The notes under the pieces: generated by a model | Told to the model about the DNA's origin: nothing | What the model saw: only the letters and a program-made list of their open reading frames with translations | The model's database searches: none | Shown: positions 8,619-62,116 of the stretch, in pieces | Position numbering within the stretch: the first letter of the stretch is position 1 | Layout of the letters: each line of letters begins with the position of its first letter | Assembly: GCA_030704615.1 (NCBI GenBank) | Contig: CM060731.1 | Location: 79,980,001 to 80,044,000, forward strand | Source of the DNA: Takakia lepidozioides | Taxonomy: Eukaryota > Plantae > Bryophyta | DNA length: 64,000 nt | Direction of reading: 5' to 3' | Position numbers and translations under genes: made by a program

Positions 8619-8919
8619 TGTCAAGTTATTTTACCACTAGTGTGAAGTTAGCTAGGAAATAGCTAGCTTTTATATATTGACATTTGGGATTGACTCAAGT
8701 GTCAATCCAGGGGCCAATACATGTTTGGGCACCTGACGTTGTTATCTTCATGGCAGATCGCGGTGGGCTCATCTTTCTCGAGTTGAGCCTCACCGCGTCT
8801 AGCTATGGCGTTGTAGTGTGGATTGCACTTGGCTCGACTTAATATATGAGTGATGTTTTCACGTGCAAGTGTGTGAGTTTGAGAGAGCTTGTATGCTTGT
8901 ATTATTCCTTTCCTTATCA
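8619..8919 (+). repeat. 5' LTR of the DNMT-carrying Ty3/gypsy element (~301 bp)
   Basis: TG...CA ends; closely matched in two blocks at 31069-31259 and 31522-31617; TATA-like tttatata ~8669; internal hairpins at ~8676-8707 and ~8760-8796. Confidence 0.7.
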
Positions 8920-9814
8920 CTCGAGAAAGATGAGCTCGAGTCTGTGAGTGCCGTAGCACTTGTGTTTTCAGATCATGAGAAACGGTTCATCCTAGAGTGC
9001 AGAGATCCATGCATGAGTCTATCCAAAGCGGATAGAGTGCAAATACGAACAAGTTGCAGGTTTGCAATGGATAGAGAGGCGGGTAGCCTATGTTGAAGAA
9101 CGGCGTTGCATAGCTCAACGCTACGGCCAACCAAGTTTGGGCTTCTAGTGTGAAGCGGAGGAAATGATGGCCACGAGTAGGCGCGAACTGGTGGTCGTCT
9201 TCTTCAGCTGCAGGCCGAGTTAAGGAGCTGCAGAAATGTGGGCTGCGCATGAGAACTTAGCATGTGGCAGGTTGGAGATGACATGATCAGCTCCATGTAT
9301 TTCTGCCCGAAACTAGTTGTTGCGGGTAGATGAGGAGCAGCCGAAAGGTGGAGCTGCGAGGGGATGCATCGCAGCTTGTTGGGAGCTTCACCTCTAAGCT
9401 CATGAAGAGGTATGAGTGAAGAGAGAGGGCTGGTCCATCTTGTGTGCAAATCAGTGCACATGTGAAGCATGTGTTTGAGTTGGAAGTTTCAATCTGAAAC
9501 TGTAGCACAAGGGCTCTTGGAGTGGCAAGAGCGGGGCTGGAAGGGCAGCAACGAGGCGCCCTAGAGTCAAGGGAATGTGTAGTAGAACTGCAGGTACACC
9601 AAGGTTGTAAATGTGTGTATTTTCAGATTTGTTTTTGTAAGCTTCATGGAGAAAATGGAGCTTGTTGGGCAGCATATGGCTTGCTTGTTGAGTTGGGGGC
9701 GCTTCTAGTGGATCGTGAGAGCTCAGGAGTGCAGGGCAATGGAGCTGATGGCTCCGTAGAAGCCATAGCTCGTTGGCAGCAGGTGCAGGAGCAAACCCCA
9801 GCTGGGGAAGAGCT

Positions 9815-9892
9815 CGGGAATGCATGGGAACTCGTGGGAACGCCCGGGAACGCATGAGAACTCGTTGGGAGTTCCAGGGAACGCAGGGAATA
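9815..9892. repeat. Short GGGAAC-based ~10-bp tandem array in copy-1 5' UTR
   Basis: gggaatgcat gggaactcgt gggaacgccc gggaacgcat gagaactcgt... Confidence 0.6.
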
Positions 9893-12734
9893 GTGGTCGT
9901 GATGGGCCGTTGGGGCGGTATCACGAGATACCACGAGCCTAGGTCATGACTATTGACCGTGACCGTTGACCGTGACTGTTGGAAGTCGTGGTGCGGACAC
10001 AACGGGTGGGCACGGTGACCAGATCGTGGGAATGGCGGGCCATGAAGGCTCGTGGGAGTGGTACCACAGGATATCACGAGGCAGCCCGTGGCCAACGAGT
10101 GCTTAGGGCGGGCCGTGAGGAGTCGTGGCGGTTGGAGCCATGGAAGGCCGCGAACAGGAAGAGTGAAAAAAAAAAATTAAAAAAAAAAACTTTTTTCACT
10201 CGTTTCGTGGGACCTTGATGGGAGGCTGGGCTCTGAAGAACAACGGTTTTGAGCTAGCTGATCTGGCAGAAAAGTCGGAATTGCCTCCCTGTTGCGTTTT
10301 AACAAAGGGGATTACTTCCCTGCAGGTAATCTTTTCGGGTTTTCAGCCCAATTCTTAACTATGGGGAAGACCAGCCTGCAGGTAATTCCTTTGGACATAA
10401 TGTTGTTGGGGCCTATATGTACCTCTGTTTGCTCCATTTTTGAACCTTCAGTGAACGGTGTGGTTTCCTGAGGTGGTTCCATTATGAGGAATGACTGGTG
10501 GACAAGAGGAGGCACTGGCAGACCCTATGGAGGCTTGCATGGGGCCTTGGAGGCCAAGTTTCATGAGCTCGTGGAGGGCGGTTTTTGGAGTGTCTACAGG
10601 ATGCTCTCATGGTCATGCAAGTGAGAGAAGAGAGGGAAAAAAAATGGTGTTGGGATGAGAGCGTGATGGGGATAGGCATTGCTTTAGTTTCCCTTCCTCG
10701 TAGCTTTCTACCTTCTCTGTAGGCCGAGACGTTTCCCTAGGTGGAGGCAAGAGTCAGTCCGGGTTTGGGCTGGGTTGCAGGAGCGACACTGTGGAGTTGT
10801 TTTTGGTGTGGGGGAGTTGTTGTTTTCATTCTTGTGTTTGGATCCCCTCCACACCTGTATGCTTGATTGTGCATCATGCTAGTTTTGTGTGGGCGCTTGA
10901 TTTTATGGGTGGTTGACTCGGGCTTGATCGCCGATCCAACCCTAGAGCATGCTGTCGATGGTGAGGCTGGGTTGCTGACCAGTCAGACCATCTTTGTTTC
11001 TCATGTGGTGAGGTTGGAGGTGATGACCAGCCAACCATAGGAGTGCCTGCGGTGGATGCAGGTGCAGGTGCAGGCTATGTTAGGAACCTAGTATTCCAAA
11101 CCATAAGCCGCATCAGGTTCTCTACCCGGTTACCTTGTGGAGAGGGGGTTAGAGACGGTTGAGTGTCAGTTTGTCAACACGGAGGTGCCACTAGTTGCTG
11201 GAGAAAGTGCCGGTACGAGTACTAGTAATACTAGCGGGTATACGAGACGAGGTGTGCGGTTTAGGCCACCTTCACCTCCTGTGTCTTCTACGGAAGGTTT
11301 TGATTCGAATTGTGAATCAGGAGGACTCACACCGGCGGTGCAAGTTGTTTCCTTGCCATTGTTGTGGGACACAATGGAGGAGATGTATGGAGCCACCAAG
11401 GGGCCAAGTAGGTACTCTGGGGCGGTGGGCACCATTGAGTTGGATGATTTTAGCCAAAAGTTTGATAATTGTTGGGACTTGCAGCAAATGGGCAATCCAC
11501 AACTGTTTACGCCTTTCATGGCATGGAAGGGGCTGATTCAGCACCTTGAGGGACCGCCCATGGATGACTACCATGAGTTTAGGCGGGGGCACGATGTTGA
11601 GATCGAGGAGTGGAGGATGTACTGGTCATCCGACTACGTCTCCATCACTAGAGGCATTATAGGCACAAGGGCAGCAGCCACACCGGCAGCTGCACCAGTA
11701 GCAGTAGCTACAACAGCAGCTTCCACGAGCAGTAGTGGGACTAGTGGTATAGCAACTACGACGTCCACCCAAGCTACTGCTGCACCAGCACCAGTGGCGG
11801 TGCCTGCCTTCAACCCTGTTGTGGAGTTCTTCGAAGAGTTATGAGGGAACTACCAAGGGGTGAGGACAGAGAAGTTGCGGAGCTTGCAATAGTTCCAATG
11901 GAAGCCGACCGAGAGCTTGAGGGAGGCTTTCACTCGCATGAGGCGCTTGATAAATGTAACCCAAGGGATTACGGAGGCTCAGGCAGTCCAGTTCTGGTAC
12001 GGGATATTGGACAAGGAGCTGAGGAGAAGGGTGCGGGATGCAACTCTCCTACAAGCGGCCCATCCCACCTTAGCAAATGTGTTTTTGCTGGCAGAGCGGA
12101 TAGAGCTCAACATGGTGGAGGCACGAGTGGTCATGGTGGGATTTGCTAAAGAGGCACCACGGAGTAGTGGTGCTCCTAGCCAGCCACTACCTCAACGTGC
12201 TCAAGGCATCAAGGGGGCTCAGGTGAAGCCCAGGGAAGGACAGAGAGGACCTCAGATGTAGGGGTCTCTCCCTTCATTTGCAAGCCAACAACGGACGGAT
12301 GTGGTGTGCTAGACATGTGGAGGACCCCATGCCAAGAAGGATTGCCCAGAGGGCAATGGTTTGGCACAGGCACAGCTTGCACAGTTGCAGTGTGGGCATT
12401 GTGGCAAGTACGGCCATGGAGAGGCCCAGTGCTATGGTTTGCATCCTGAGTTGCGCCCAGGCCAGTTCCAAGGGAACAATGGTGGCCAGGGGCGAGGTGG
12501 AGTAGCCCAGAGAGGACGAGGTGGCCAGGCACGAGGTGCAGGCCAAGGTCAAGCTCAACATGGCCAAGGATGTTGAGGTCAGGGTGGTGACCAAGACATG
12601 GCCAACCGGCTTCAGCAGCTAGAGCAGAGGCTCGCTACCATGGCCACAACTTAGGTGGTACCGGCTCCAAGGCCGGATGGTCCACCTCCTGCTCATGAGG
12701 GAAGAGATATAGGAGGCATGGGATTCATGTGCGG

Positions 12735-12885
12735 GGCAACACTACCACTACTACTATAGGTAGGGCACCACTACCACTAGTGAGGGGTGCCACTACCACT
12801 ACCACTGTGGGTAGGGCACCACTACCACTAGTGTCGGGCAGCACTACCACTACCACTATGTGCGGGGCAGGACTACCACTAGTGC
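12735..12885. repeat. CTACCACTA-rich local expansion in copy-1 gag-pol, absent from copy 2
   Basis: Repeated gcac(c)actaccacta(g/c) units; copy 2 has a single gcactaccactagtg at ~18468. Confidence 0.7.
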
Positions 12886-15794
12886 AAGTGGAGTCAGCTG
12901 GCAGTGACTCGAGGAGCAGCACGAGTTCCTGAGCCACGGGGTGCGGAGGTGGAGTTGGATCCACAGCGTGGGGATGCAAGCTGTCAGGCCAGGCTTCCTC
13001 AGTCATTCACATTGGCGGAGACAGTGTCAACGCCGTCCATGACACCTAGTTCTTGCCCGACTGTTACCGAGGCAGAGGTTACTATGCCATTGGGGAGAGC
13101 TACACGGGCAGCACCACTACCTAGTGTTGCCAAGGCTACGGCAGCTAGTGTACTACTAGGGGCGGCCACAGCTGTGTGCCAGGCTCCATTGTTCTCGGCT
13201 ACCATGATTGTGACGCCGGGGGTAAGACCAGCTGAGGTGTTCAGGCTAGCAGCTACACTCTGTGAGAGTGGGGAGGTTACTTCATCTTCTGCGGAGATAG
13301 TGGGAGGTGTAGTGCTAGAGGGATCCTCGGATTTGAGGGTCAAGACTGCCATGGCGGCGCCATGACAAGCTCCAATTGCCAGGTTGTTAGAGCTGCCAGC
13401 TAGGCCAGCCATTGAGCGCGCCATGGTGACACCTGGAGTTGTCATGTTAGACAACCAGGATGACATTTTCTATTTGAGTGGACCGGCAGGCAAGTGGTAC
13501 TGGCCACTGCGGGTCTTGTTGGACTCGGGAGCTCAGCCATTGATGCTGGGTAGAGCTGGTATTGCAGGCTTGAGCCTCACGGAGGCGGATATGGAGCCGT
13601 GCCCTTTCCAAATACAAACATCTCTGGGAGGATCATAGCAGGCTCGGGGCATGACACGGCGTGAGCTGGCTATCAGACTACAGCCGGATCATCCGATAGA
13701 TGGCTCAATGATGAGAGCCAAGGCCATTGTGACAGACGCGGTCTCGTACGATGTCCTTGTTGGTGGGGCAGTGTTGTACCCCATGGGCTTCACCCTGGAT
13801 TTTTTGGATGATTCAACTTCCTATATGCCTAGATGATAGTCAGGGGAGGGCCGGCGTATGCAGCTCCCTGTGACGTCCATGGGAGGAGTTGCGGTTGCCC
13901 AGCGAGGCAAGATGCCAACACTGGTAACATTCACAGCTGCAGTGACTTGGCCTGGAGAGTTGTTGGATGGCAACACTCATTCACAGGATGTGTCACCTCC
14001 GGGAGAGCAGGATGACATGTATGGTATGGCAGAGTTGCCTGCCATGGTTGCTCACACTCCATTGTGGGGCTCAAGCAAGGATTTGCAGCGGGTTGCTGAT
14101 CGACAAGTGCAACAAGCCTGGGTAGAGGCTTTTGTACCGTCAAGAGAGGAGGACGGTGCGGGGATTGCGCCAGGTCCACCTCAGTTGTCTCCATTGGACA
14201 CCACACCAATCGTGTGGCAGTGTTCGGATGAAGGCATTTGCCTTCTGGATTTGTTTGGCCGGATCAGCACCGGATTGGCTGCTATTCTACAGGCAGGTGT
14301 ACGAGTTCGGCGTTACTTGTATGTGGAGAAGGATGAGACTGCACGACATGTCTCCCTACACCATGTTACTCACGTATCTGCGAGTGCCAGATACGAGTTA
14401 GTTGTAGCACTTGTGGTTTTTGCTTGAGAATGAGAGAAACCAAGTTGTTATGCAAGGAGCACCGTGGAGCTCTTGGTTGTTAGAAGCGGAGGCGATGTGG
14501 GTTACGAGGTGGTAGACCTCGGCATTCGATCTGCAGCTTCAGAGATGAAAGCACCATGCTGCAGGTAATTCCAAAGCACCTTGATGGTTTCAGATTGTGT
14601 ACATGCATGAGCAAGCACGATTGGGAAGAGGACCAGTCAAGAGCAGGTTATAGTGGCTTTGGTGGCAAAGCTGAGAACTGGACTTGGGAATGCGAGCTTT
14701 CATTGTGTGAAGGATTGCAAGACCAAGCGAAAAGGCTGATTTGGCTTGGGGCAAATCAGTGCACTTTGTGGAGTATGTTGAGAGTGGGTTTCAATCTCGA
14801 GCTTCATTGAGAGGCTCTTGTCATGGCAAGAGCAGGGCTGGAACATGAGCTAAGAGGTGCGGCAAGGCCATGGAATGTGCACCTAGGGTTTCAGAGCTTG
14901 GAAGAAGAGCTCTTGCACCACAAGAGGAGTGTCTTGTGGCTGGAAATGTAAGCCTTAAGGTTTCAGGAGCTTGGCAAAGGTTGTGGAGTGCTTAGTCTTG
15001 TCTTAGAGAGCATCAATGAGCCAAGGAGCCAAGATAGGGGCTGATAACCTCTTGTGTGAAGAGGTTGCATGTGTGGAGCATATATTCAGCTCATTGAAGC
15101 TTCCATCTTCAAGCTTGGAGGGCAAGCAAGGAAGATGGAAGGGGCTGGTTTCCCTGTAGGGATGTGTTGGAGCATGCTTCCAGCCCGCTGAAGCTTGTAT
15201 TTTCAGGTTGGTGGGTGCAAGAAAGGAAGCAAAAGGGGGAAATTCTCTTGTGGTGAGAGGGGGGCATGTGTGGAGCATGCCTTCAGTCCATTGGGCTTTT
15301 GTTTTCAAGCTTTAGAGAACTAGAAGAGAAGGTAAGGGGCTGATATGCTCTTATGTGACAGTCTGACACTTGTAGAGCGTGTTCTTAGTTGGGGTTTCAA
15401 CCTCAAACCTAGATAGAGCATGGCTCTTGAAGTGGCAGATGTAGGGGGCTGGAATAGGCTCTAAAACAGATGCTATGGCCAAGGAAAACGCTTGAATGAG
15501 TGCTCACAAGGGCTGGAAACCAGCAAGGCTTGGTTGTTTGCCATTGAGTTTAGTGGCGTGTTTGGGGAATCTAAGTGAGAAAGAAGGCTTGGTTTGTGAC
15601 AACCATCTTCCTCATGGCTTAGGGCTACTATTGGTGGTGTGTGGGAGCCAAAAGAGCAAGAATATCTTGCTGATTTCTTCACAGCCGCCATAGCTCGGTG
15701 CAAAGAAGCCTAGAGTCCAAGAGACACAAACCCTAGCTTGGCGTGGCTAAACCCCTTGGAGAAATGGCTAAACTGCCATGAGTGGCCATGGATG

Positions 15795-16200
15795 GGGCTG
15801 TGACGGGCTGTGACGGGCTGTGACAGGCTGTGCCCTGTGGCATGTGGGGCTGTGAGGGGCTGTAACAAGCTGTGCCCTATGGCCTGTGGGGCTGTGACGG
15901 GCTGTGCCCTGTGCCCTGTGACCCCTGTGACCTGTGTAGGGCTGTGACAGGTTGTGATGGGCTGTGAGGGGCTGTGGCCTGTGGCCTGTGGGGCTGTGAC
16001 GGGCTGTGACAGGCTATGACAGGCTGTGGCCTTTGGGGCTGTGACCCCTCTGACCTATGTAGGGCTGTGACGGGCTGTGACAGACTGCGGCCTGTGGGGT
16101 TGTGACCCTGTGACCTGTGTAGGGCTGTGACAGGCTGTGGCCTGTGTGGGGCTGTGACGGCTGTGACCAGTGAGCTGTGTGGGCCTGTGCTGGTCTGTGG
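15795..16200. repeat. GGGCTGTGAC decamer-based tandem array in copy-2 5' UTR
   Basis: Many imperfect gggctgtgac / cctgtg units. Confidence 0.9.
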
Positions 16201-16869
16201 TGGCCCGTGTTGACCTGTGGACGGCCTGTGCTGACTCGTGGAGGCACTGGTGGACTGCCTAAGGACTGACGTGTGGTCTTGAAGGCCGAATTTTGAAGCT
16301 CGTGGAGGGCGGTTTGAGGAGTATCTTCATGATATTCCCATGGTCATACAAGTGAGAGAAGAGAGGAGAGGAAGAGTGTTGGGATGAGGGCATGTTGGGG
16401 TTAGGCATTGCTTTAGCTTCTCTTCCTCGTAGTTTCCACCCTCTCATTAGGCCAAGACCTTTCCGTAGGTGGAGGCAAGAGTCAGTCCGGGTTTGGGCTG
16501 GGTTGTCCTTGCAGGAGCAACACCGTGGAGTTGTTTTTGGTGTGGGGGAGTTGTCGTTCTGATTTCTTGTGTTTGGATCCTCTCCATACCTGCATGCTTG
16601 ACTGTGCGCCATGCTAGTTTTGTGTGGGCGCTTGTTTTTATAGGTGATTGGTCCGGATTTGATCACCGGCCAGTCCTAAAGCATGCTGTCGATGGTGAGG
16701 CTGGGGTGATGACCAGCCAGACCATCATTGTTTCTCCTGTGGTGAGGTTGGAGGTGATGACCAGCCAACCATAGGAGTGCTTGCGGTGGATGCAGGTACA
16801 GGTGTAGGCTATGTTATGAACTTAGTATTCCAAACCATAAGCCGCAACAGGTTCTCTACCCGGTTACCT

Positions 16870-18588
16870 TGTGGAGAGGGGGTTAGGGACATGTTCATGA
16901 CCGGTTGAATGACAGTTTGTCAACACGGAGGTGCCACTAGTTGCTGGGGACAGTGCCGGTTTGAGTACTAGCGATACTAGTGGGTACACAAGACGAGGTG
17001 TGCGGTTTAGGCCACCTTCACCTCCTGTGTCTTCTACGGAAGGTTCTGATTCGGATTGTGAATCAGGATGACTCATACCGGCGGTGCAAGTGTTTTCCTT
17101 GTCATTGTTGTGGGACACAATGGATGAGATGTATGGAGCTACCAAGGGGCCACGAAGGTACTCTGGGGTGGTGAGCACCATCGAATTGGATGATTTTATC
17201 CAAGAGTTTGATAGTTGGTGTGATTTGCAGCAAATGCGCAATCCACAACTATTTACGTCTTTCATGGCATGGAAGGGGCTGTTTCAGCACCTTGAGGGGC
17301 CGCCTATGGATGATTACCATGAGTCCAGGTGGGGGCATGAGGTTGAGATCGAGGAGTGGAGGATGTACTGGTCACCCGACTATGTCTCCATCACTAGGGG
17401 CACTAGAGCCACGAGGGCAGTGGCTACACCTGCCGCTGCACCGGCAGCAGTGGGACTAGTGGGACTGGTGGTACAGTAGCTACGATGTCCACCTAAGCCA
17501 CTACTGCACCAGCACTAGTACCCGTGTCTGCCTTCAACCCTGTTGTGGAGTTCTTCGAAGAGTTGAGAGGGAACTACCAAGGGGTGAGGACAGAGAAGTT
17601 GCGGAGCTTGCAATAGTTCCAATGGAAGCCGACCGAGAGCTTGAGGGAGGCTTTCACTCGTATGAGATGCTTGATAAATGTAACCCAAAAGGGTTACGGA
17701 AGCTCAGGCAGTCCAATTCTGGTATGGGATATTGGACAAAGAGCTGAGGAGAAGGGTGCGGGATGCAACTCTCCCTACAAGCGGTCCAAACCCACCTTAG
17801 CAAATGTGTTTTTGCTGGCAGAGCGGATAGAGCTCAACATGGTGGAGGAACGAGTGGTCATGGTGGGATTTGCTAAGGAGACACCACAGGATAGTGGTGC
17901 TCCTAGCCAATCACTACCTCAACGTGCTCAAGGCAACAAGGGGGCTCAGGTGAAGCTCAGAGAAGGCCAGAGAGGACCTCAGATGTAGGGGTCTCTCCCT
18001 TCATTTGCTGGCCAACAACGGGCGGATGTGGTGTGCTAGACATGTGGAGGACCCTATGCTAAGAAGGATTGCACAGAGGGAGGCAAAGGGCCGGCACATG
18101 CACAGCCTGCACAGTTGCAGTGTGGGCATTGTGGCAAGCACGGGCATAGAGAGGCCCAGTGTTATGGTTTGCATCCTGAGTTGCGCCCAGGCCAGTTCCA
18201 AGGGAACAATGGTGGCCGGGGGCGAGGTGGAGCAGCCCAGAGAGGACGAGGTGGCCAGGCACAAGGTGCAGGCCAAGGGCAAGCTCAATATGGCCAAGGA
18301 CGCGGAGGTCAGGGTGTTGACCAAGGCATGGCCAAACAGCTTCAGCAGCTAGAGCAGTTGCTCGCTGCCATGGCTACAGCTCAGGTGGTACCGGCTCGAA
18401 GGCCGGATGGTCCACCTCCTGCTCCTGAGAGAGGAGATATGGAAGGCATGGGATTCATGAACGGAGCAGCACTACCACTAGTGCAGGTGGAGTCTGCTGC
18501 AGCCATGACTCGAGGAGCAGCACGAGTTCCTGAGCCACGAGGTGCAGATGTGGAGTTGGAGGCAAGCCGTCGGGCTAGGCTTCCTTAA
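16870..18588 (+). pseudogene. Retrotransposon gag (copy 2) with CCHC zinc knuckle
   Basis: ELDDFIQEFDSWCDLQQM..., ESLREAFTRM..., CGHCGKHGHREAQC followed by a GRG-rich stretch; stops and frameshifts. Confidence 0.8.
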
Positions 18589-19794
18589 TCATTCACATTG
18601 GCGGAGACAGTGTCGACGCCATCCATGGCACCTAGTTCTCATCCGACTGTTACCGAGACGGAGGTTATTATGCCATTGGGGAGAGCTACACGGGTAGCAC
18701 CACTACCTAGTGTTGCCAAGGCTACGGCAGCTAGTGTGCTGCTAGGAGCGGCCACATCTGTGTGCCAGGCTCCATTGTTCTCGGCTACCATGATTGCGAC
18801 ACCCGGGGTAAAACCAATTGAGGTGTTCAGGCTGGCAGCTACACTTTGTAAGAGTGGGGAGGTTACTTCATCTTTTGCGGAGATAGTGGGAGGTGTAGTG
18901 TCGGAGGGATCCTCGGATTTGAGGGTCAAGACTGCCACGGCGGGGCCATGGCAAGCTGCAGCTGCCAGGTTGATGGAGCTGCCAGCTAGGCCAGCCATTG
19001 AGCGTGCCATGGTTACACCTGGAGTTGTTAGACAACCAGGATGACATTTCTGTTTGAGTGGACCGGCAGGCAAGAGGTAGGCCACTGCGGTCTTGTTGGA
19101 CTCGGGAGCTCAGCCATTGATGCTGGGCAGAGCTGCTATTGCAGGCTTGGGCCTCACGGAGGCGGATATGGAGCCTTGTCATTTCCAGATATAGACGAGC
19201 AGGCTCGGCGCATGACACGGCGTGAGTTGGCTATCAGACTACGGCCGGATCACCCTACAGTTGGCTCAGTGATGCCAGCCAAGGCCATTGTGACAGACGC
19301 GGTCTCATACGATGTCCTTGTTGGTGGGGCAGTGTTGTACCCCATGAGCTTCACCCTAGATTTTTGGGAGGAGTCAGCTTCCTATAGGCCTGCATGGCAG
19401 TCAGGGGAGGGCCGGCGTGTGCAGCTCCCTGTGACGTTCATAGGAGGAGTTTGCGGTTGCCCAGCGAGGCAAGATGCCGACACTAGCAGCATTCACAGCG
19501 GCAGTGAGTTGGCCTGGAGAGTTGCTTGAGGGCAACGCTCATTCAGAGGATGTGCCACCTCCGAGACAGGATGACATATATGGTATGGCGGAGTTGCCTA
19601 CCATGGTTGCTCAGACTCCATTGTGGGGCACGAGCAAGGATTTGCAGCGAGATGCTGATCGACGGGTGCAACAAGCCTGGGTGGAGGCTTTTGTACCGTC
19701 AAGAGAGGAGGAGAGTGCGGGGATTGCACCAGGACCACCTCAGTTGTCTCCATTGGATACCACACCTATTGTGTGGCAGTCTCCGGATGAAGGC

Positions 19795-20760
19795 ATTTGT
19801 CTTCTTGACTTGTTTGGCGGGATCAGCACCGGATGGGCTGCTGTGTTACAGGCAGGTGTACGAGTTCGGCGTTACCTGTATGTGGAGAGGGATGAGACTG
19901 CAGGACGCGTTTCACTTCGCCATGTTGCTCAGTTGGTGCAGCGGTACCCTGAGTTGTTGCCGATGTCTGCAGTTCGTGGATATCAATAGGCCTTGCCAAC
20001 AGACATTTCATTGCTGGGGACGAAGGATTTGGAGCGGGTTGGCTCCATTGATCTAGTAGTGGTAGGTTGGCCCTGCCAAGGGCATTCATCAGCCGGGCAT
20101 GGCAATGGATTGCGAGACTCGAGGTCAGGTCTGTTTTGGGTGATAATGCGGGTTTTGCGCCACTTGCAGCTTCATCAAGCTGTATCTCCAGCAAACATCT
20201 TGGAGAATGTGCCGCTGATGGGCGATTCTCGGGCCAGGGTGATGGCCAGTGTGCATCAAGTCCGGTCGTGGCTTGGGTCAGCAGTGTTGCTAGATGCAGC
20301 TACAATGGGGTCACGGACTCATCGTCCACGCCTATGGTGGACTAAGTTGATGCCACCCGCACTACTCAAGCGTGCATTTGATGGGGTGCAGCGGCCAGCA
20401 CATCTCACAGTGGATAGCATTCTGGACATAGGGAGGCAGTCTCAGCGTGTGAGACACGATGACCGTTCGCATTTGGCAGTGGTCAACAAGGTGGGTCAAC
20501 CACGAGCAGCATTACCTACATTGCTCAGCTTCCCAGGATCGCATGCTTTCCGGGATAGTGGACCTGGCCTCCTGTGGGGTGCTCAATTGCAGCAGTTAGT
20601 GGAGCCTAATGCTGACGAGCGTGAGCGGGCAATGCGTTTTACCACTGGTACCACGGCGGTGTCGTCTCTTTCTGAGGCATTACGTTGTCAGGTGTTGGGG
20701 CAAGCAATGGATCTCAATTGCTTGACCTGGATTATCAGCTTGGCTATGGCTGAGCAACGC
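19795..20760 (+). pseudogene. C5 cytosine DNA methyltransferase domain (DNMT3/DRM-like) embedded in pol between protease and RT
   Basis: Motif I LLDLFGGISTG (19795-19833), II YVERD, III TDI, IV IDLVVVGWPCQ (catalytic PC 20071-20076), V GLRDSRSGLF, VI ILENV (20203-20211), VII LLDA, VIII HRPRLWW, IX ERERAMRF, X LGQAMD; one in-frame TAG at 19987-19989. Confidence 0.93.
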
Positions 20761-21169
20761 AGAGTGCGGAGTACACTTCCCTCGATGGTCTCTCTGCCTA
20801 CCGAGACGGTACAGGCAGTGAGTGGGGGCGAGCATGTGAGGTCCACGGGGTGCAGGCATCCATGGCACACGTGGGAGGTGCTCGAGGTTTAGAGGGAGTT
20901 GGCAGCCAAGGTGGCGGTGATAGATGAGGTTGGGGATTTTTCTCGGGTGGAGGAAGTCCTTGAGGATGAGATGATGGGGCAGGATGAGGCCTTGTCACTG
21001 ACTGAGCAGGTAGGGAGTACTGCTCAAGAGGTTGCAACATAGCAACCACTGGACGCGTCCTCTACCTCTAAGCCCACTGGACTTAAGGTTGCAGTTACGG
21101 AGGGAAATTGGGAGCCTGACGTTGGACCCATTGTCACCGGAGGAGAGAGATGACGTATACGGCGGTTCC

Positions 21170-21960
21170 TGAGGGCTTACAGGAATTGCTTTGCCTTCAA
21201 TTTGAAGGACTTGGGAGCACTGAAGGGTCAAGAGATCCGTATTGAGTTGGCCACTGACACGCCAATCTTTCGGAGACCCTATAGATACAGTGACATGGAG
21301 AGGTCTTTGATTCAGATGAGGACTCAAGATCTCTGGGAGGCAGGTTTGGTGGAGCTCTCTAGTGGAGAGTATGCTTCAGCCACAGTGATGCCAGCCAAGA
21401 AGGATGTCTATGGCAATTGGATGGAGAGACGTATGTGCGGTGATTACCGGCCTGTAAATTGTCAGACCAAGTCCGATAAGTATGCCATGCCAACACCAGA
21501 GGAGATCTTTGATGCCATCGGGCATGCTAAGGTCTTTAGCACTTTGGATTTACGATCCGGATATCACCAGTTGCCAATCAAGGGGCGGACAAGCAGAAGA
21601 CGACATTATGGGGGATCAATGAGCACGGCAAGGATTGCCTATATCAGTGGCAGTTCTTACCATTTGGGCTTAAGAATGCTCCTGCAGAGTTTCAGAGAGT
21701 CATGGATAGGATTCTAGCAGGGGTGGACTTTGCTCGGTGCTACATAGATGACATCATCATTTTTAGTGTTACGGTGGAGGAGCATGAGAGACACCTTCAG
21801 GTGGTATTGGAGCGTTTGAGAGGGTACGGATTGAAGTTGCATCCGGGGAAGTGTAAGTTTTTCCACAACCAGATTGAGTATCTGGGTCACATGATATATC
21901 CTGGAGGATTGGGGGCAGCAGACTAAGGTAGAGGCCATTGCACAAATTCCACGCCCCACG
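21170..21960 (+). pseudogene. Ty3/gypsy reverse transcriptase (frameshifted)
   Basis: PIFRRPYRYS, RRMCGDYRPVN, FSTLDLRSGYHQ, PFGLKNAPAEFQRVM, CYIDDIIIFS, GKCKFF..IEYLGH. Confidence 0.95.
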
Positions 21961-23040
21961 GATGTGAGCCGAGTTCGAGCTTTCATGGGGTTGGCAAACT
22001 ATTATAGACGGTTTGTCAAGGGATTTAGTATCATTGCAAAGGCTCTAACCAAGCTGACCAAGGTGGATCAGGAGTGGCAGTGGGAAGATGAGCAGGAACG
22101 AGCTTTTCAAGAGCACAAGACGAGGTTGACCTCGGTGCCTATCCTGAGACGACCTATCAGGGGGCGTCCCTTTCAGCTGCATACGGATTGGAGCATGCTG
22201 GGGCTTGGAGCGGTGCTCACACAGGTGGATAATGAGGGAAGAGAGTTCGTAGTGGCTTATGCTAGCCGCTCGAACAACGCTGCAGAGGCTGCATATGCAT
22301 TCCTGGATCGAGTGCTTAGCCGATTCGGTGCTCCAGCTGAGGTACTCACGGACCAAGTGAGAGAGTTCTTGGGGGAGTTTTAGGCTTTGTGTGATAAAGC
22401 CTTGATAGACCACCGTACCACTTCTCGGGATCATCCTGAGGCCGATGGCTTGGCAGAGAGAGTGGTTCAGATAGTGAAGAGGGGTTTGCGCAAGTATGGC
22501 TTGCAAAATGGACACTTAGGAGATTGGGATCTTTAGGTACCTTGGTTAGCCATGGGCTACAGGTTCAGCAAACAAGCATCACTTGCCTCCTTCTCACCAT
22601 ATTTCCTTCTCTTTGGCCGAGAGCCTGATTTGTCTGCATCTATTCGCAGGGAGGCTGCAGTAGTCCTCAACCTTGATGATCCGGATGTGTGGACACAAGC
22701 ATGTGCCCAGCGGGCAGAGTTGTTCAAGAGAATCATGACTATGGCTTTTGAGAATCTTGCTATTGCCCAACACCGAGACACATTGAGGTATGTCACTATA
22801 CGTGGAGGGGGATATCGGCCAGGTGTTTGGCGTTTCCACCCTGGGGACTATGTGTATCTGCAGCAGACAGCCCTACGACCTTGAATGTCACAGCATGACG
22901 TGTAATTCTAAGGGTCAGGGAGGTGTTGCCTTCAGGAGTGTTGATTCTGGAGGGTCGAGATGGCATGGTATGGAAGGACCATGTGTGTAATTGTGCGCCA
23001 TGTCACCTTCCACATGTGGATGAGATGATAGATCCCAAAC
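21961..23040 (+). pseudogene. RT connection / RNase H N-half fused by deletion to integrase core and C-terminus
   Basis: VRAFMGLANYYRRFV, FQLHTDWSMLGLGAVLTQ, AYASRSNNAAE then directly AYAFLDRVLSRFGAPAEVLTDQ...HPEADGLAER, SPYFLLFGREP, FHPGDYV. Confidence 0.9.
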
Positions 23041-23067
23041 TTGGCAGTGGTACCTGCAGGATTGCGT

Positions 23068-23211
23068 TGCATGCTATGTGCGCATACTCGTGGTGCCATC
23101 ACTATGCTGGTGTGTGATCGATGCTCAAGAGGTTGGCACATAGGATGCTTGACACCACCTCTTGAGAGGGTTCCTGATGGAGATTGGTTATGTCTATACT
23201 GCTTGGGATAG
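23068..23211 (+). CDS. PHD zinc finger at the integrase C-terminus (not in the ORF track)
   Basis: Frame from 23041: LAVVPAGLR-CMLC-AHTRGAITMLV-CDRC-SRGW-H-IG-C-LTPPLERVPDGDWL-CLYC-LG*; C4-H-C3 pattern with the PHD P.G.W.C..C motif. Confidence 0.93.
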   Translation, partial: CMLCAHTRGAITMLVCDRCSRGWHIGCLTPPLERVPDGDWLCLYCLG

Positions 23212-24311
23212 TGACAGTGGATATGACTAGTGGCAGCTCACAAGACATGGGAGGCCAAGCTCATAGGAGTCAATACCCAAGATCTCAAGCTCAAGTTCAC
23301 AGGTTGCAAGACGACGACTAACGATGGGGCAACTCTTGTACCCGACCTCTTGATCTATCGAGTTTGAGTGTAGTAGGGACAGTGGTGGAGGCACTACAAC
23401 ACACCCTATGTAATTTCGACGATTTAGTTTGACGCTGGCGTTGACTGTTGTCACTTTCGACTGTTCCAACCATTTTGCAGTCAGAATTTATATTAAAATA
23501 TTCGAGGTGCTAGACAACCGCGAAAAATTTGACTGTAGTGAGAGATTTTGACTACCTAAAATGAGCTGACTGAAACAACCATGTGTAATCACAATATATA
23601 AATTATATATAGCAATATATACGTGGATAATAAGAAGTAAAAACATTTAACTATTTTTTCACTGACCCAACACATTAATAGTAAACTAATCGTGTGTTGG
23701 TTAAGGTTAGTGAAACAAAGCAACTGAATTATCTGAACAAATGATAAACAAACGCCTTGCTGGCAGCTGTTGGATGAACGTATGAAATATAATTTGTGTG
23801 CACTGGATGAACGTATGAATGAACGATAAAGCAAACGCCTTGCTGGCAACTATTGGATGAACGGAAAATTAAATGGATGGATGGATAGATTGATGGAAAA
23901 CCCAAAATCCATCCATCTACGATACATTCATCCAAATAATTCAAAATGGATTTAGGGTTGCGGGATTGCGTTCAGCGACTTGATCGTTTTGCTGTGTTTG
24001 CGTGGGAGGATCTGCAGGATATGCAATAGCTTGGGTGGACAACCGCAATGGCAAGGTGTGGCTTTTCTTAATGTACGATGTGAAGAGTTTGTCCATCCTG
24101 CAAATGTGGGGCTCTCTTAGTACCATGATTTGGTATTCTTCCCGATGTTTACAAGGTTCTTGGGAGAGTCGGCTTGGTCTTAGCAGGCCGTGTTTCAATC
24201 TCCGCCCGCTCAGCTGCATCGTGGTGTTCTCGCATACCAATCCTCTCGCAGACCAATCCGACATTACCTGACTACAGACACAAGCAGCACACACAAGAGG
24301 TGGTCAGTCAA

Positions 24312-24423: not shown

Positions 24424-24618
24424 GGGTCCGCAGGTACACCTCTTATGTGGTTCACAAATATATTTGTTTACATCAAATGCCAGGGACTCTCAGTAGATTC
24501 TCCTCGTGAAGAAAGCTGCGAGAATTGGGGTAATTTCGGGTGGTTAGAGAAGAAGGAGTTGTGAAGGAGAATTTGTATGGGTCTAGTAACGGATGGCCGG
24601 AGATGCTGCAATGTGTAG

Positions 24619-24757
24619 GATGGCGGGGAGGTTTTTTTCAGGATTAAGACCACAGCCACACTTGGAAAGCTGATGCATGCATACTGCGACCGTCGGTCAC
24701 TTGATCGCCTTCCTTTTCGATGGCAGACGCCTTCGCGCTGAGCAGACCCCTGCCGAG
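24619..24757 (+). pseudogene. SUMO: Captured SUMO internal exon (frameshifted by a small deletion)
   Basis: tag|[47 protein letters not shown]|gt, flanked by AG and GT. Confidence 0.92.
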
Positions 24758-24934
24758 GTTATTCTCGCTCCTTTTTCTTCTGTGTTCTTCCAAAGCTGAC
24801 AGGATTCTCATTGAGCTGCTAAAAGTGGTATATGTGTAAGCTTATTATGTAGGGCAGTATTTGAAATGTCTGGTCTTGCCAAAAGTGGCTGTTAGGGCTG
24901 CTGTTTGGATTGGACCTGTGATGGGTATGTGATG

Positions 24935-25869: not shown

Positions 25870-28470
25870 TTCTGCTGGGCATGTGAAGATGCTTTGTGAG
25901 GCAGGCAGACTGACAGAGGCTCTACAACTTTAAACTAACAAGGCATTTCAGCAGATTCAGATATGTCTTCTGTCTCTTGCTTAAGTGCATCAAGATGAAA
26001 GGTCTGGAAGCTGGAAACAGGTGCACACTCACATTATCCAAAGTGATTAACGCCAAATGTTTTTCTACTCAACACCCTTGTCAACATGTATGTTAAGTGT
26101 GGGAGCATCATGGATGCTCACCAGGTTTTCCACAGAATGCCTCGACCATCTTTGATCACGTGGAATATAATGTTGGCAGGATTTACCAAGCATGGGTGTG
26201 GTAGGAATGCTTTGGAGACCTATGAGCAAATGTTGCACATCACGTTCGTTTGTGTTTGCAATTCGTGTGCAAGCCTGGGAGCCCTGGAAAAGGGGAAAGA
26301 GGTCCATGATGACATCGTGAAAGCTGGAATTGTACCAGATGTCATTCTGAACACTGCCCTGGTCGACATGTATGCCAAATGTAAGTGCATTAAGGATGCA
26401 AAGGCAGTTTTCAACACTATGGCTGAACGAGATGTGGTGTCGTGGCACGCGATGCTTGCAGGGTATGCATAGCAGGGACGTGGGATGGTGGCTTGGAGAC
26501 CTATGATCAATGATGGGGGAAGGGGTGAAGCCCGACCACATCACGTTTGTGCGGTGTGCAAGCCTGGCAGCTCTGGAAAAGGGGAAAGAGGATGCGAAGG
26601 CGCTATGGCTGAACAAGATGGTGGTGTCGTGGCACGCAAGGGGGGATTGTGGCTTTGGAGACCTGTGATCAAATGATGTGGGAAGGGGTGAAGCCCAACC
26701 ACATCACGTTTGTGTGCATTTGCAATGCATGTGCAAAGAGGTGCATGGTTGCATCGCGAAAGCTGGAATTGTACCAGATGTCATTCTGAACAATACCCTC
26801 GTGGACATGTATGCCAATTGTGGGAGCATTGAGGATGCCGAGGGGTGTCAACAATATGGCTGAACAAGATGTGGTGTCATGGAACGCCATGCTTGCAGGA
26901 TATGCACAGCAGGGGCGCGGGATGGAGGCTGTGGAGACCTACGAGCAAATGATGGAGGAAGGGGTGAAGCCCAACCACATAAAGTTTCTGTGCGTCTGCA
27001 GTGCGTGTGCAAGCCTGGCAGCCCTGGAAAAGGGCAAAGAGGTCCATGGTCGCATCGTCACAGCTGAAAATGTACCAGATGTGATTCTGAACAATAATCT
27101 GTGGACATGTATGCCAAATGTGGAGGGAGTGTTCAACAATATGGCTGAACGAAATTGGTGTCATGGAACGCCATGCTTGCAGGATATGCACAGCGGGGCA
27201 CGGGATGGAGGCCTTGGAGACCTATGAGCAAATGATGGGGGAAGGGGTGAAGCGCAACAACATCACGTTTGTGTGCGTTTGCAATGCTTGTGCAAGCCTG
27301 ACAGCCCTGGAAAAGGGCAAAGAGGTCCATGGTTGCATCGTCAAAGCTGGAATTGTACCAGATGTGATTCTGAACAACACCCTCGGGGACATACATGTCA
27401 AATGTGGGCATTGAGGACGTGAAGGGAGTGTTCAACAATATGGCTGAACGAGATTTGGTGTCATGGAACGCCATGCTTGCAGGGTATGCACTACAGGGGG
27501 GGGGATGGAGGCCTTGGAGACCTATGAGCAAATGATGGTGGAAGGGGTGAAGCGCAACCACATCGCGTTTGTGTGCGTTTGCAGTGCGTGTGCAAGCCTG
27601 GCAGCCCTGGAAAAGGGCAAAGAGGTGCATGGTTGCATCGCCAAAGCTAGAATTGTACCAGATGTGATTATGAACAATACCCTCGTGGACATGTATGCCA
27701 AATGTGGGTGCATTGAGGATGCGTAGGGAGTGTTCGACAATATGGCTGAACGAAATGTGGTGTCGTGGAACGCGATGATCGCAGGATATGCCCAGCATGG
27801 TCATAGGGAGGTCCTGCAACTATTTGAAGGAAATGCAAAAGAATGGCTTGAAGCCGGACAGTCTCACCTTTATATGTGTTCTCTCTGCATGCAGCCACAC
27901 TGGCCTACTGAATGAAGGAAATCAAGATCATGGTGTCACTCCGACAGTAAAGCACTTTGGCTGTATGGTGGACCTTCTTGGACGTGCGGACAACTGGATG
28001 AGGCAGTGGATGATTAATAAGATGCCAATCAATCCAGATCTTGTGGTGTGGAAGGCCGTGCTTGGTGCCTGCAGAATCCATGGCAATGTGGAGATGGCTG
28101 AACGTGCGGCAACATCTATCCTCAAATGGGATGAACAGGATGCCGTGACTTATGTGTTGGTATCAAACATGTATGCTGCAGCTGAGGTGGGATGATACTG
28201 CAAAGGTGAGAATGATGAAGGTCAGAGGGGTTAGAAAGCAGCCAGGTCGCTGCTGCATTGGGGTTGGCAACAGGGTGCACACCTGCTGTAGATGACAAGT
28301 TGCATCCCAATTAAGGAAATCCATGCTGAGCTGAGAAGATTGTCTGGGCAGATGAAAGGAGGCGGGGTATGTGTCTGATACGCGCTTTGTATTGCATGAT
28401 GTGGGGGAGGAAAAGGAATTTTCTCTTTGCCACCACAGTGAGAGGCTGGCCATTGGTTTTGGGCTGATCA
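25870..28470 (+). pseudogene. PLS-class PPR gene with E and truncated DYW domain, heavily frameshifted
   Basis: Repeated P/L/S motifs (DVVSWNAMLAGYAQQG; [27 protein letters not shown]; PDVILNNTLVDMYAKCG); L2/S2/E ([50 protein letters not shown]); DYW start [27 protein letters not shown], then broken. Confidence 0.92.
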
Positions 28471-29790
28471 GGTTTGTGTGCGGTTGCAGTGCGTGTGCAA
28501 GCCTGGCAGCCCTGGAAAAGGGCAAAGAGGCCCATGGCAACATTGTCAGAGCTGATGTGGTGTCGTAGAACTCGATGCTTGCAGGGTATGCACAGCAGGG
28601 GCACTGGATGGAGGCTTTGGCTCCAGATGTTGTGCTTGACACACTATGTAAACCCACTATGTAAGACCAGGGAGTATTTGAGCAGCTCAGTCTCAACCCT
28701 TTCCTAGTGCCAACAAATGATGTGGATTCACGCCAAAAAGGTCTGGAAGCTGGAAAGCAGGTACACACTCACAAGCATCGCAGGGTATGCAGAGCAGGGC
28801 GTGGGATGGTGGATTTGGAGACCTATGATCAAATGATGGGGGAAGGGGTGAAGCCCCAACCACATCACGTTTTTGTGTGATTGCAATGCTTATGCAAGCC
28901 TGGCAGCCCTGGAAAAGGTCAAAGAGGTCTATGTTGACATTGTCAAAGCTGGAATTGTACCAGATGTCATTCTGAACTCTGCCCTGGTGGACATGTATGC
29001 CCAATGTGGGTGCATTGAGGATGCAAAGCAAGGAACTTATGTGTACTCTGTTTATATATTGGGTTGGCAGGGAGGCTTTGGAGATTTTGAATGGGTGATG
29101 CTTGCAGGGTATGCACAGCAGGGACATGGTATGGAGGCTTTGGAGATGGGGGAAGGGGTGAAGCCCAACCACATCACGTTGCAGCATACTGGTACTTCAC
29201 AGCCATGGCGGCTCTCTCAGCCCCTCCATTTTTTTTTCTTTTGGTTTTTTTGGCGCTGGGAGAGAGCAGCAGCTCTGCTGTCTCCTTCCCCTTGCTTATG
29301 CCGATCGTTAAAGGGGAAATTGTCATTCTGAACTCTGCCTTGGTGGACATGTATGCCAAATATGGGTGCAGCAAGCCTGATGTGAAGGGAGAGTTTGACA
29401 ATATGGCTGAACGAGTTGTGGTATTTTGGAGTGCCATGATTGCAAGGTATGTGCAGCATGGGTATGGGATTAAGGCTTTGGAAACATAAGAGCAAATGAT
29501 GTGGGAAGGGATGAAGCCAGACCAGGCCGTCATGTTCATTTGTTTTTGTAATATGCATATGCGAGCCTAGCAGCCCTGGGAAGAGGCAAAGAGGTTTATG
29601 GTGACATTATCCAAGCTGGAATTGTACCAGATGTCATTCTGAACATTCCCCTGGTGTACATCTACGTCAAATGTGAGCCTGGCAGCCATCAAAAGGGCAC
29701 AAAGGTCCATGATGACATCGTCAAAGCTGGAGTTGTCACTCTAAACACTGCCTTGGTGGATATGTATTTCAAGGCAACCCTGGAAGTGGA
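28470..29790 (+). pseudogene. Additional scrambled PPR motif fragments
   Basis: Further [12 protein letters not shown] / KAGIVPDVILNSALVDMYA / MLAGYAQQG pieces interleaved with unrelated sequence. Confidence 0.8.
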
Positions 29791-30793
29791 TGTCACTTTG
29801 GGTGACAAGGTAGCTGGCACCACCATTCTCTGGAACTACCTGAATTCATTCTCAAAATGATTTATAATGTTCTCTTGACATGTCCACGATAGTGCTGGAC
29901 CTAGTTGCACAGCAGATTATCCTTACTCAATGACTTCAGTTGGGCAGTGATCTATGGATATGGCAACATGGCCCTCATGTTGGTCATTTGTAGAATGTGG
30001 CCAAAACTTGTTTTGCAAATCACTCTTGATATAAAACCAGTTTTGAGCCATCCAAATGTTTTTGGTTCCGACCTGTATTTGTATTCTATGTTTTGTTGTA
30101 TTTAATATATTTTCAATGCAGTGCAGCGAATCAAAAAATTTAAATACAATATCCACTAATTCACATACGTACAGATATAAACCAAAAGTAAATGAAAAAA
30201 ACGAAATAACAAAAAAAACAAAAAAAAAAACCAAATATTAAATAAAAAGCCTCCCAATTCATATATATTATATTATATTTATATGTATATATGTATATAC
30301 ACCTCCAGAGTGAAACATATTTACTAAAATGTGTCCTCTTTTACTGCTTCACAGTAGAATATTACAATATACAAAGTCAAGCAAACTCACTATCACTGAT
30401 TTACAGTCAAACCGTATACTAAACATCATGGAACATAGTCAATATGTTCCACTTCAGTTAAACCACTTTATTAAACGTCATCCATCCACGTCACTCTGCC
30501 CTTAAGCCACTCACTATACGTCATGCATCCACCTTATAATTCAGTTAAACCACTTTACTACACGTCATAGCCACGTCGCATCCACGTCATATTGTGCTGC
30601 CTACACGTCACCCCTAGGTTTTACTGTCACATTTCACTGTCAGAACCTGGTATCTGGATTCGACTGCTTGACTGAAACGACTTGACATTTGTCACGCATG
30701 TTCGACTATGGAGGCTGGGAGTAAAAATGTCGCAAATGACTAAAAAATGAGTCAAATACAAAGTCGAAAAGTCCAGCTTGTATTGTAGTGAGG

Positions 30794-31521
30794 ACTAGTG
30801 GCTAGCACTAGTGACTAGCAACCTAGTGATGGACTAATGGCTGCACTAGTGGCAGACTAGTGGTTGGACTAGTGGCTGCACTAGTGGTGGCTAGTGGCAG
30901 CCTAGTGATGGACTAGTGGTTGCACTAGTGGTGACTAGTGGTTGTCTAGTGACAGCCTAGTGGTGCACTAGTGGTGCACTAGTGATAGACTAGTATTTGG
31001 TGTGCACATGTGTTGTGTGATTCTGGACAGCGATGTAGTTGTGTAGCGATATGTATGTGCACAACAGCTATCAAGTTATTTTACCACTAATGTGAAGTTA
31101 GTTAAGAAATAACTAGTTTTTATATATTGACATTTGGGATTGACCCAAGTGTCAATCCAGGGACCAATACATGTTTGGGCACCTGACGTTGTTATCTTCA
31201 CGGCAGATCGCGGTGGGTTCATCTTTCTCGAGTTGAGCCTCACCGCCTCTAGCTATGGCAGCTTGTCGTGCGCATACATATCGCTACACTCCAGAATCAC
31301 ACAACACATGTGCACACCAAACACTAGTCTATCACTAGTCCACCACTAGTGCACCACTAGTGCACCACTAGGCTGCCACTAGACAACCACTAGTCACCAC
31401 TAGTGCAATCACTAGTCCATCACTAGGCTGTCCATCATTAGGCTGCCACTAGCCACAACTAGTGCAGCCACTAGTCCAACCACTAGTCTTCCACAGTGCA
31501 GCCACTAGTCCACCACTAGTC
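30794..31521. repeat. Long inverted repeat (arms 30794-31069 and 31260-31521) of ACTAGTGG-rich sequence around a ~190-bp LTR segment
   Basis: Right arm reverse complement ...actagtgatagactagtgtttggtgtgcacatgtgttgtgtgattctgga..gtgtagcgatatgtatg aligns with the left arm; third partial copy at 31620-31706. Confidence 0.9.
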
Positions 31522-31617
31522 TGCACTTGGCTCGACTTAATATATGAGTGATGTTTTCATGTGCAAGTGTGTGAGTTTGAGAAAGGTTGTATGCTTGTAT
31601 TATTTATTTCCTTATCA
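31069..31617 (+). repeat. 3' LTR, split by a ~260-bp inverted insertion
   Basis: 31071-31259 matches 8621-8809; 31522-31617 matches ~8825-8919, ending ccttatCA. Confidence 0.72.
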
Positions 31618-31734
31618 TTGTGATGGACTAGTGGCTGCACTAATGGTGGCTAGTGGCAGCCTAGTGATTGGACTAGTGGCTGCACTAGTGGTGGCTAGTG
31701 GTGTCACTTAAAAAATAATGGAAAAAAAATAATG

Positions 31735-61645: not shown

Positions 61646-62116
61646 AGAGGAAGTGAGGAGAGGGATTAGACAGTTCGTGATCAAAACTGAAAATGATGTC
61701 ACATAGAAACACTTGGAGAGTCATAGCATATCACCATACAGCCTTTACAGGGACCATCACAGACCCTCATAGTTTTTCAGTTCTGAGAATGCAAGTATGA
61801 GGATACAGCTCATACCCAAACTCCATTACATTTGCTTAGAGACTTCTGCTTTATTAGTCAGTAGTCAAAACAGCAAGACACACAACTATACTTATGAGGA
61901 GGTGTGGGTGGGGATTATGTATATTCACCCCATTGGAGCCTACTTGGCAACCAGTGACATAGTCACCTCACCCTAACTACAAGGATGGGAGGGTGCTTAG
62001 TGACTTCATACCTAACAAACACCCAAACTGTCTCAACCCAGATCTGCCTCCTTACCACCCTTTACAAATCCTTACTGGATTAAGTAATCCAAGAGTGGAG
62101 GTAGCCATATTCAAGG

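Follow-up and report, generated by a model that had tools for sequence, protein, structure and literature searches.

The closest described system is KnitGypsy-Dnmt3 of Klebsormidium nitens, which was given as Klebsormidium-specific and has its DNMT3-related domain within the Pol ORF (de Mendoza et al., 2018; PMC5890265). In yeast, the Klebsormidium DNMT gave no de novo methylation, a result that its authors call inconclusive, and SymbioDIRS-Dnmt3 was shown to methylate CG (PMC5890265). The streptophyte Gypsy-DNMT3 was later named as a distinct, earlier acquisition in a preprint on EpiLTRs/DAM-LTRs (bioRxiv 10.64898/2026.05.21.726589), in the accessible text of which the terms 'bryophyte' and 'land plant' do not occur, and PMC12344493 cites the kind loosely, as 'streptophytes'. 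In the published view Gypsy-DNMT3 is an acquisition of the Klebsormidium lineage. The first-pass annotation of the present DNA had named de Mendoza et al. (2018) as precedent, and rightly, as the Gypsy-DNMT3 kind was published there for Klebsormidium. In the literature searched no description of a land-plant Gypsy-DNMT3 was found, although figures, Repbase, subscription papers and supplements may include some. Marchantia and Sphagnum are absent from the supplement files of PMC5890265 that were searched, and no such element appears in the accessible parts of PMC6453930, PMC11982613, PMC6317226, PMC12885004 or the Marchantia 4mC and chromatin-evolution preprints.

The element in the window

The window (the whole stretch of 64,000 nucleotides of Takakia lepidozioides that was analyzed) contains two copies of one element, which are 88% identical and lie on the + strand, as do all the element features given below. 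Copy 1 (8619..14372) starts with TGTCA, its likely left terminus, which matches the A side of a detached junction remnant (31069). Its gag (11374..12651) is broken by stops, shows 50% identity to the Marchantia protein P0002 by tblastn and has a zinc-knuckle-like motif at 12391. The copy ends inside the methyltransferase (DNMT), of which a motif I-II fragment (14236..14372) was located by motif positions and tblastn with relatives. Copy 2 (14373..23391) is decayed and 3'-truncated. By tblastn with relatives it has a gag with stops and frameshifts (17120..18590) and a frameshifted aspartic protease (19093..19442; LLDSGA at 19093). These are followed by the DNMT (19795..20745) and by a TAG stop with CAA CCA after it (21040..21048), a CARYYA context that alignment with relatives marks as the end of ORF1 and a likely readthrough site. 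Then come the reverse transcriptase (21106..21914; RVT_1 E 6e-25; YIDD at 21741), with a stop at 21151 and one frameshift, and the RT connection and RNase H (21916..22287; RT_RNaseH_2 E 2e-20), which an internal deletion cuts off at ~22287. The integrase has lost its zinc finger and the start of its DDE core; what is left of the core and the C-terminal part (22288..22880) stay below the rve cut-off and were recognized by tblastn to the integrase of P0025 and P0027. The polyprotein ends with a PHD finger (23068..23208; PHD E 2e-4 for this partial piece), which, together with split terminal repeats, goes beyond the first-pass annotation. With its many stops and frameshifts, among them the premature stop at 19987, copy 2 is dead, as that annotation had said.

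The order Gag-PR-RT-RH-INT with a DDE integrase was found in the window by tblastn and Pfam and again in L065, an intact relative. It is almost certain that the element is a Ty3/gypsy retrotransposon with a DNMT, in line with the earlier assignment. Asp_protease_2 falls just under the Pfam cut-off in L065 and above it in P0022. The DIRS/PAT class of tyrosine-recombinase elements was considered and rejected: by Pfam, L065 has rve, Integrase_H2C2 and a protease and no tyrosine recombinase. A chromodomain was likewise not matched by Pfam in L065 ORF2.

In contigs from four runs, all 30 bins of 16200-23400, DNMT included, were covered in each run; other sequence follows 23391 in all four, and loose ends at 22287 occur in four. 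In one run, which may derive from the source of the window itself, 69,915 contigs match 16200-23400, with identity from <90% to >99%. This spread shows a large repeat family; contig number and depth give no copy count. Across the 5' non-coding part of copy 2 (14373-16239) the likeness to copy 1 is patchy and no more than 60-73%, and at the same place in this part the two copies have differing short tandem arrays (15785-16230 in copy 2, 9880-10150 in copy 1), with GC-rich repeats at a similar place in L065. Upstream of gag a leader motif (GGAGGTGATGACC ... GCAGGTGCAGGT; window 16700-16810, L065:880-960) looks conserved by eye between families only 50% identical in protein, while blastn gave no match for it; it could be a splice or priming signal.

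The C5-MTase sequence ICLLDLFGGISTG lies at 19795-19833 of the window. A single frame carries all the named motifs in the canonical order that was first reported: GWPCQ within 20050-20082, ENV at 20203, HRPR at 20320, ERERAM at 20617 and LGQAMD at 20695-20712. PF00145, which had been proposed as a check, matches the domain with 44 bits and E 2e-11 (Pfam cut-off 22). Four in-frame stops are found around the domain (19987, 20890, 21040 and 21151). The domain begins at the same place in both copies (14236 and 19795, offset 5559) and in the same register, also as first reported, and in copy 1 it breaks off at 14372, ~46 codons in. We conclude that 19795-20745 is a C5-methyltransferase between the protease and RT of a decayed Ty3/gypsy element.

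The resemblance to DNMT3, at first drawn from motif spacing, holds both by sequence and by fold. In a phmmer search of solved structures the top 25 matches are all DNMT3A or DNMT3B (best E 3e-5), with HhaI and DRM2 ranking lower, and the Marchantia homologue, as modelled by AlphaFold (pLDDT 81.5), has DNMT3B/3A as its best Foldseek match (E 4e-17, ~20% identity). The domain is intronless and DNMT3-related, without the DRM rearrangement and with key residues kept. Although human DNMT3A/B are its best sequence and fold matches, the element domain differs from host DNMT3, that of moss included (PMC6453930), in being intronless, fused to Gag-protease and multi-copy, and its target-recognition region is longer and poorly modelled (pLDDT below 50, residues 229-259). 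The window methyltransferase is DNMT3-like. Between copy 1 and copy 2 the transition rates are 0.22 at CG, 0.16 at CHG and 0.09 at CHH; these fit ordinary host methylation and are uninformative on the element's own enzyme.

Relatives, selection and host

A profile search, with matches taken up to E 1e-30, yielded 539 clusters (50% identity). Named homologues are found in Marchantia polymorpha (58-74% to the window domain), M. paleacea, Riccia sorocarpa and Calypogeia fissa and in Sphagnum fallax, S. troendelagicum and S. jensenii. More distant homologues occur in Closterium, Mesostigma viride and the chlorophytes Haematococcus and Scenedesmus. Several full-length Gag-PR-DNMT gene models of 1278-1281 residues exist in Marchantia, annotated as hypothetical. 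Among the 15 listed members of the Marchantia P0002 cluster, four have Mp_Vg ids and so belong to the V sex chromosome; two of these four are full-length ORF1s of 1281 residues.

From 335 confirmed metagenome stretches 80 loci were kept, of which 60 have the window's layout PR-DNMT-RT (type A) and 16 the layout RT-RH-DNMT-INT-PHD (type B), while the remaining 4 are too short to be assigned. Retroelement domains adjoin the DNMT in all 76 loci long enough to include neighbouring domains, which bears out the claim that the methyltransferase is element-borne and not a one-off insertion. In type B (Scenedesmus, and Haematococcus by tree; L081, L086, L092, L095, L099-L101; proteins P0025, P0027, P0243 and others) the homologous DNMT sits between RNase H and integrase. 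The proposal of a streptophyte lineage persisting in embryophytes is too narrow, since chlorophyte relatives carry a homologous DNMT at another position. Many type B elements have a tail of ~210 residues after the PHD finger, for which a low-confidence model (pLDDT 58) gave weak fold matches to SAM-dependent methyltransferases (best E 3e-3) and a PDB sequence search gave no match; the tail could represent an additional methyltransferase-like domain. Two type B loci (L093:5141-5143, L095:1397-1399) show one in-frame stop between long ORFs ahead of RT, and its context is not CARYYA.

Across 196 full-length domains the catalytic Cys is kept in 194, the Glu in 196 and the two motif VIII Arg in 193 and 195, counts that are biased because the rows were chosen by profile score. 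For the DNMT, the four type A pairs between families that could be measured gave dN/dS values of 0.09-0.17, and one type B pair gave 0.04, which shows purifying selection between active-looking families (0.04-0.17). Within the Sphagnum-like family it is ~0.5, reflecting decay of copies, and in pairs that include the window DNMT synonymous sites are saturated (dN 0.22-0.27). One could ask whether the domain is kept for binding, or for methylation of RNA (genomic RNA or an RNA:DNA hybrid), and not for duplex DNA. The inactivity of the Klebsormidium homologue in yeast (PMC5890265) speaks for this, as does motif IV, which in many type B proteins reads GWECQ (72/196 rows). We find it improbable, given that the catalytic Cys, the Glu and both Arg are nearly invariant, that DNMT3A/B are the closest proteins by sequence and fold and that the related SymbioDIRS-Dnmt3 enzymes methylate CG (PMC5890265). 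Methylation of duplex DNA is the reading followed below.

In a quick DNMT tree all 87 element DNMTs stand apart from seven phage methylases, type B and Haematococcus form one group and the window groups with Marchantia, Calypogeia and Sphagnum; in FastTree trees the RT and DNMT topologies are broadly congruent. These trees have phage as sole outgroup. Their type B rows are a sample (28 in the quick tree, 17 in FastTree), and the quick tree omits nine near-duplicate Marchantia models. Because neither tree holds host DNMT3 or Klebsormidium sequences, DNMT3 ancestry is argued from the sequence and fold searches.

Phages often carry C5 methyltransferases, and 21 viral loci matched the domain weakly, so an artefact deserves mention: a host gene captured once, a methylase from a phage or bacterium, or a contig from an algal contaminant. 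None of the viral matches is better than E 1e-11, and they fall in a clade of their own; the same element architecture recurs in chromosome-scale assemblies of Marchantia, Calypogeia, Riccia and Sphagnum. This shared architecture, together with the congruent RT and DNMT trees, refutes an artefact, to which we leave a negligible chance. The host itself can be read from the window: 3 kb downstream of the element there is a decayed and partly duplicated PPR array with an E motif and a DYW domain (26047-29800), in which the PPR gene proper (26047..28565, + strand; E_motif 28.3 bits, DYW_deaminase E 2e-8) is not part of the element. A PPR-E-DYW gene marks a land plant with organellar RNA editing, and this pseudogene speaks against the algal-contaminant reading and supports the land-plant host named at first.

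Other contents of the window include a fragment at 24600-24760, which by eye resembles a SUMO pseudogene. On the - strand there are two 87% identical copies of another retroelement (47740-50140 and 62116-64000) with an RT ORF (RVT_1 E 7e-24). Its RT is far from that of the DNMT family in the tree, and no methyltransferase match was found in those of its ORFs that were scanned.

The stop between methyltransferase and reverse transcriptase

All the full-length Marchantia models end 82 residues past the DNMT, as judged from the protein models, and this pointed to the TAG at 21040 in the window. More widely, ORF1 proteins (Marchantia, the Calypogeia cluster and others) end 80-170 residues past the DNMT. 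We compared 43 sequences that include both the DNMT end and the RT start, namely 42 loci and the window. A stop at the homologous place was found in 42 of them (32 TAG, 10 TAA; the exception is L054), and the next codon is CAR in 40, against 0/12 for scattered decay stops in the same linker. A single Sphagnum-like family accounts, in near-copies, for 37 of the 43 sequences, so the independent families number only six; these form one clade in both the RT (100) and DNMT (98) trees. In the Sphagnum-like family the stop is mostly followed by CAA CCC, which is not CARYYA, with an ATG three codons on. The other families have CAA CCA (window, L030), CAA TCA (L064) or CAG TTA (L065, L066), and L076 has two consecutive stops. 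Exact CARYYA is kept in four of the six families, with synonymous sites near saturation. The intact L065 reads as 1369 open codons (Gag-PR-DNMT), a single TAG CAG TTA and 1047 open codons (RT-RH-INT-PHD). On this comparison the stop at 21040 appears as a conserved feature of the lineage and not as decay. As it is conserved between DNMT and RT, the DNMT ends ORF1 (Gag-PR-DNMT). The earlier wording 'inside pol' is hence only partly right: the domain does lie downstream of the protease and in the RT frame, but it closes ORF1 ahead of the stop.

How then are RT and integrase made? UAG-CAR-YYA is the TMV-type (type I) readthrough motif, for which six bases suffice (PMC3542737), and in TMV readthrough is ~10%, which leaves the upstream product in about tenfold excess (PMC2754532). 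Readthrough of the conserved stop is the likely route to RT-IN here. The reading frame is continuous across the stop in 34/43 sequences, and in eight of the remaining nine the stop is still in the RT frame; such conservation, the CARYYA kept in four of six families and the lack of a conserved Met after the stop (first Met at codons 3, 14, 48, 85 and 117 in the sequences compared) argue against expression by splicing, re-initiation or a separate transcript. That route would find a footing in the CAA CCC ATG of the Sphagnum-like family, in RNA folding after the stop, which gave no consistent, family-wide structure in five sequences (z-scores +1.1, -0.4, -0.6, -1.5 and -2.6), and in Tca2, for which, according to the part of the literature consulted, readthrough of the gag-pol stop was doubted. 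The need of type I readthrough for six bases only (PMC3542737) weakens the argument from folding, and we regard a real stop bypassed by some route other than readthrough as distinctly improbable.

Outside the stop clade the arrangement differs. In 14 type A proteins, Closterium models included, DNMT and RT are in one chain, and in type B the DNMT sits in the RT ORF, so that a high DNMT dosage is not required across the whole lineage.

Split repeats and integration

Complete Sphagnum-like loci (L068, L071 and L088) have their repeats arranged as A-coding-PPT-B-A-B, start with TGTCA and end with ACA. All three of these complete relatives are flanked by 4-bp target duplications (AAGG, CATA and AATC) and have a purine tract before repeat B. 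The arrangement B-A-B is also present in L039, L048 and L079; B without A after it is seen in L026, L036, L046 and L050, and no locus examined has B upstream of the first A. Two complete direct LTRs were thus not found; the ends are atypical, and it is for its proteins that the element is classed as Ty3-type. By eye, no TGG-type tRNA primer-binding site follows A1 in L068, L071 or L088. At the internal B-A border the right end meets the left end across two spacer bases in a near-palindromic CACGACA-nn-TGTCA, a junction present in seven Sphagnum-like loci, L064, L065 and two type B loci.

Of this repeat set the window keeps only the left TGTCA end (8619) and a detached terminal-repeat remnant (30990..31260, + strand) with the B-nn-A junction (31060-31073), which is 95% identical to 8621-8809 and aligns with the junctions of L068 and L065. 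The surrounding region (30790-31710) is rearranged, with inverted arms and a CTAGTG-rich array, and resembles a non-autonomous derivative. A purine run at 23320-23331 was rejected as polypurine tract, because its counterpart in relatives is a motif of the 3' untranslated region that lies ahead of their tract.

From these arrangements we infer that B and A together would make up an ordinary LTR that has its attachment site inside, and that the integrase may open a circular or end-joined cDNA at the CA-nn-TG junction; a one-repeat circle would then yield the A-coding-B form. A simple symmetric circle is disfavoured because B is never seen upstream of the first A. That split repeats occur together with an integrase suggests an unusual way of replicating, and elements of this kind would likely escape LTR-finding programs.

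The PHD finger is full in L065 (Pfam E 3e-10). Its nearest solved structures by sequence are those of CHD4, PHF12, PHF21A, KDM5 and ATXR5, several of which read unmodified H3 tails, and the finger might steer the integrase to chromatin with unmethylated H3K4.

Proposed function and comparison with known systems

A mechanism that would join these features, and that we consider evenly balanced between right and wrong, is of a high-copy Ty3/gypsy family coding for Gag-protease-DNMT, a leaky stop and RT-RNaseH-integrase-PHD, in which the enzyme is packed and methylates the element's own cDNA before integration. Translation would mostly terminate behind the DNMT, with a minority of ribosomes reading through into RT-RNaseH-integrase-PHD, so that the methyltransferase would be made, and packed into particles, at Gag-like levels. 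The protease would release the DNMT, which would methylate the new cDNA in the particle, presumably at CG given its likeness to DNMT3. The PHD-guided integrase would then insert the methylated cDNA via the CA-nn-TG junction, possibly through a circular intermediate. The likely gain is that the element would arrive already marked and quiet, limiting harm to the host.

Another hypothesis is that an active DNMT works in trans or once integration is complete, its target being the new insertion, the flanking sequence or host DNA elsewhere, and not the cDNA in the particle. Synthesis at Gag level would supply free enzyme too, the PHD finger suggests engagement with chromatin, and effects on insertion-site chromatin and on the host methylome were discussed by de Mendoza et al. 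(PMC5890265). The DNMT is fused to Gag, however, in an ORF1 that by Pfam has no reader domain of its own (L065), and the Klebsormidium methylome was described as not unusual (PMC5890265). We therefore hold this hypothesis to be unlikely, if worth keeping in mind, and retain methylation of the cDNA in the particle as the working model. A bolder version is possible but doubtful as a whole: that an ancient integrase-type clade of chlorophytes, charophytes and bryophytes has kept an active DNMT3-like enzyme since before land plants, gained a TMV-type leaky stop in its land-plant branch, integrates pre-methylated through a CA-nn-TG circle opened by the DDE integrase, and supplies Marchantia with de novo methylation from many copies that have gone unrecognised.

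With the occurrence in land plants, the question of why elements keep a methyltransferase can be put to Marchantia, a host with good genetics. Surveys of DNA methyltransferases in bryophytes may be missing a source of de novo methylation that is present in many copies, and the conserved leaky-stop context offers a concrete prediction on the dosage and location of the enzyme.

Compared with known readthrough systems, four of the six families, that of the window among them, carry the same stop context as TMV type I (PMC3542737), with the difference that the stop comes after protease and DNMT, away from a gag-pol border. Readthrough candidates among rice gypsy elements are computational only (PMC3542737/PMC2754532). 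As to the PHD finger, Gypsy-7a_cRei of Chlamydomonas is also a Ty3 polyprotein with a PHD finger for which steering of insertion was proposed, but no methyltransferase is listed among its domains in the part of that preprint consulted (bioRxiv 2022.06.16.496473). The target duplications AAGG, CATA and AATC do not fit the NCGN preference of Phygy (PMC6317226).

Among methyltransferase-bearing elements, EpiLTRs/DAM-LTRs are also Ty3-like and also join a methyltransferase to chromatin-reader modules, but their DNMT is sister to DNMT4 and goes with a chromodomain and DAM (bioRxiv 10.64898/2026.05.21.726589). SymbioDIRS-Dnmt3 likewise has a DNMT3-type domain in a split-repeat retrotransposon (PMC5890265), yet it is a DIRS element with a tyrosine recombinase, whereas the present element has a DDE integrase, a protease and 4-bp target duplications. 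The closest likeness is to KnitGypsy-Dnmt3, which has the same Gypsy domain set, an intronless unrearranged DNMT3-related domain under purifying selection, and DIRS-like repeats (Fig. 4c legend, with DIRS drawn as A-coding-B-A-B in Fig. 1; PMC5890265). The window element probably works like KnitGypsy-Dnmt3 and belongs to the same lineage. The differences are that the present kind is found in liverworts, Sphagnum and the window, with homologues in Closterium, Mesostigma and chlorophytes, and that in its land-plant clade the DNMT is followed by a conserved stop: the KnitGypsy-Dnmt3 domain is described within the Pol ORF, and the window DNMT, downstream of the protease and in the RT frame, is parted from RT by that stop. 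A PHD finger or readthrough is not mentioned in the accessible text on KnitGypsy-Dnmt3 (PMC5890265). The Gypsy-DNMT3 kind and its split repeats are thus known already from Klebsormidium; what appears new, as read from sequence comparison, is the extension to land plants and chlorophytes and, as added features, the conserved leaky-stop signal, with its predicted readthrough, and the end-to-end junction.
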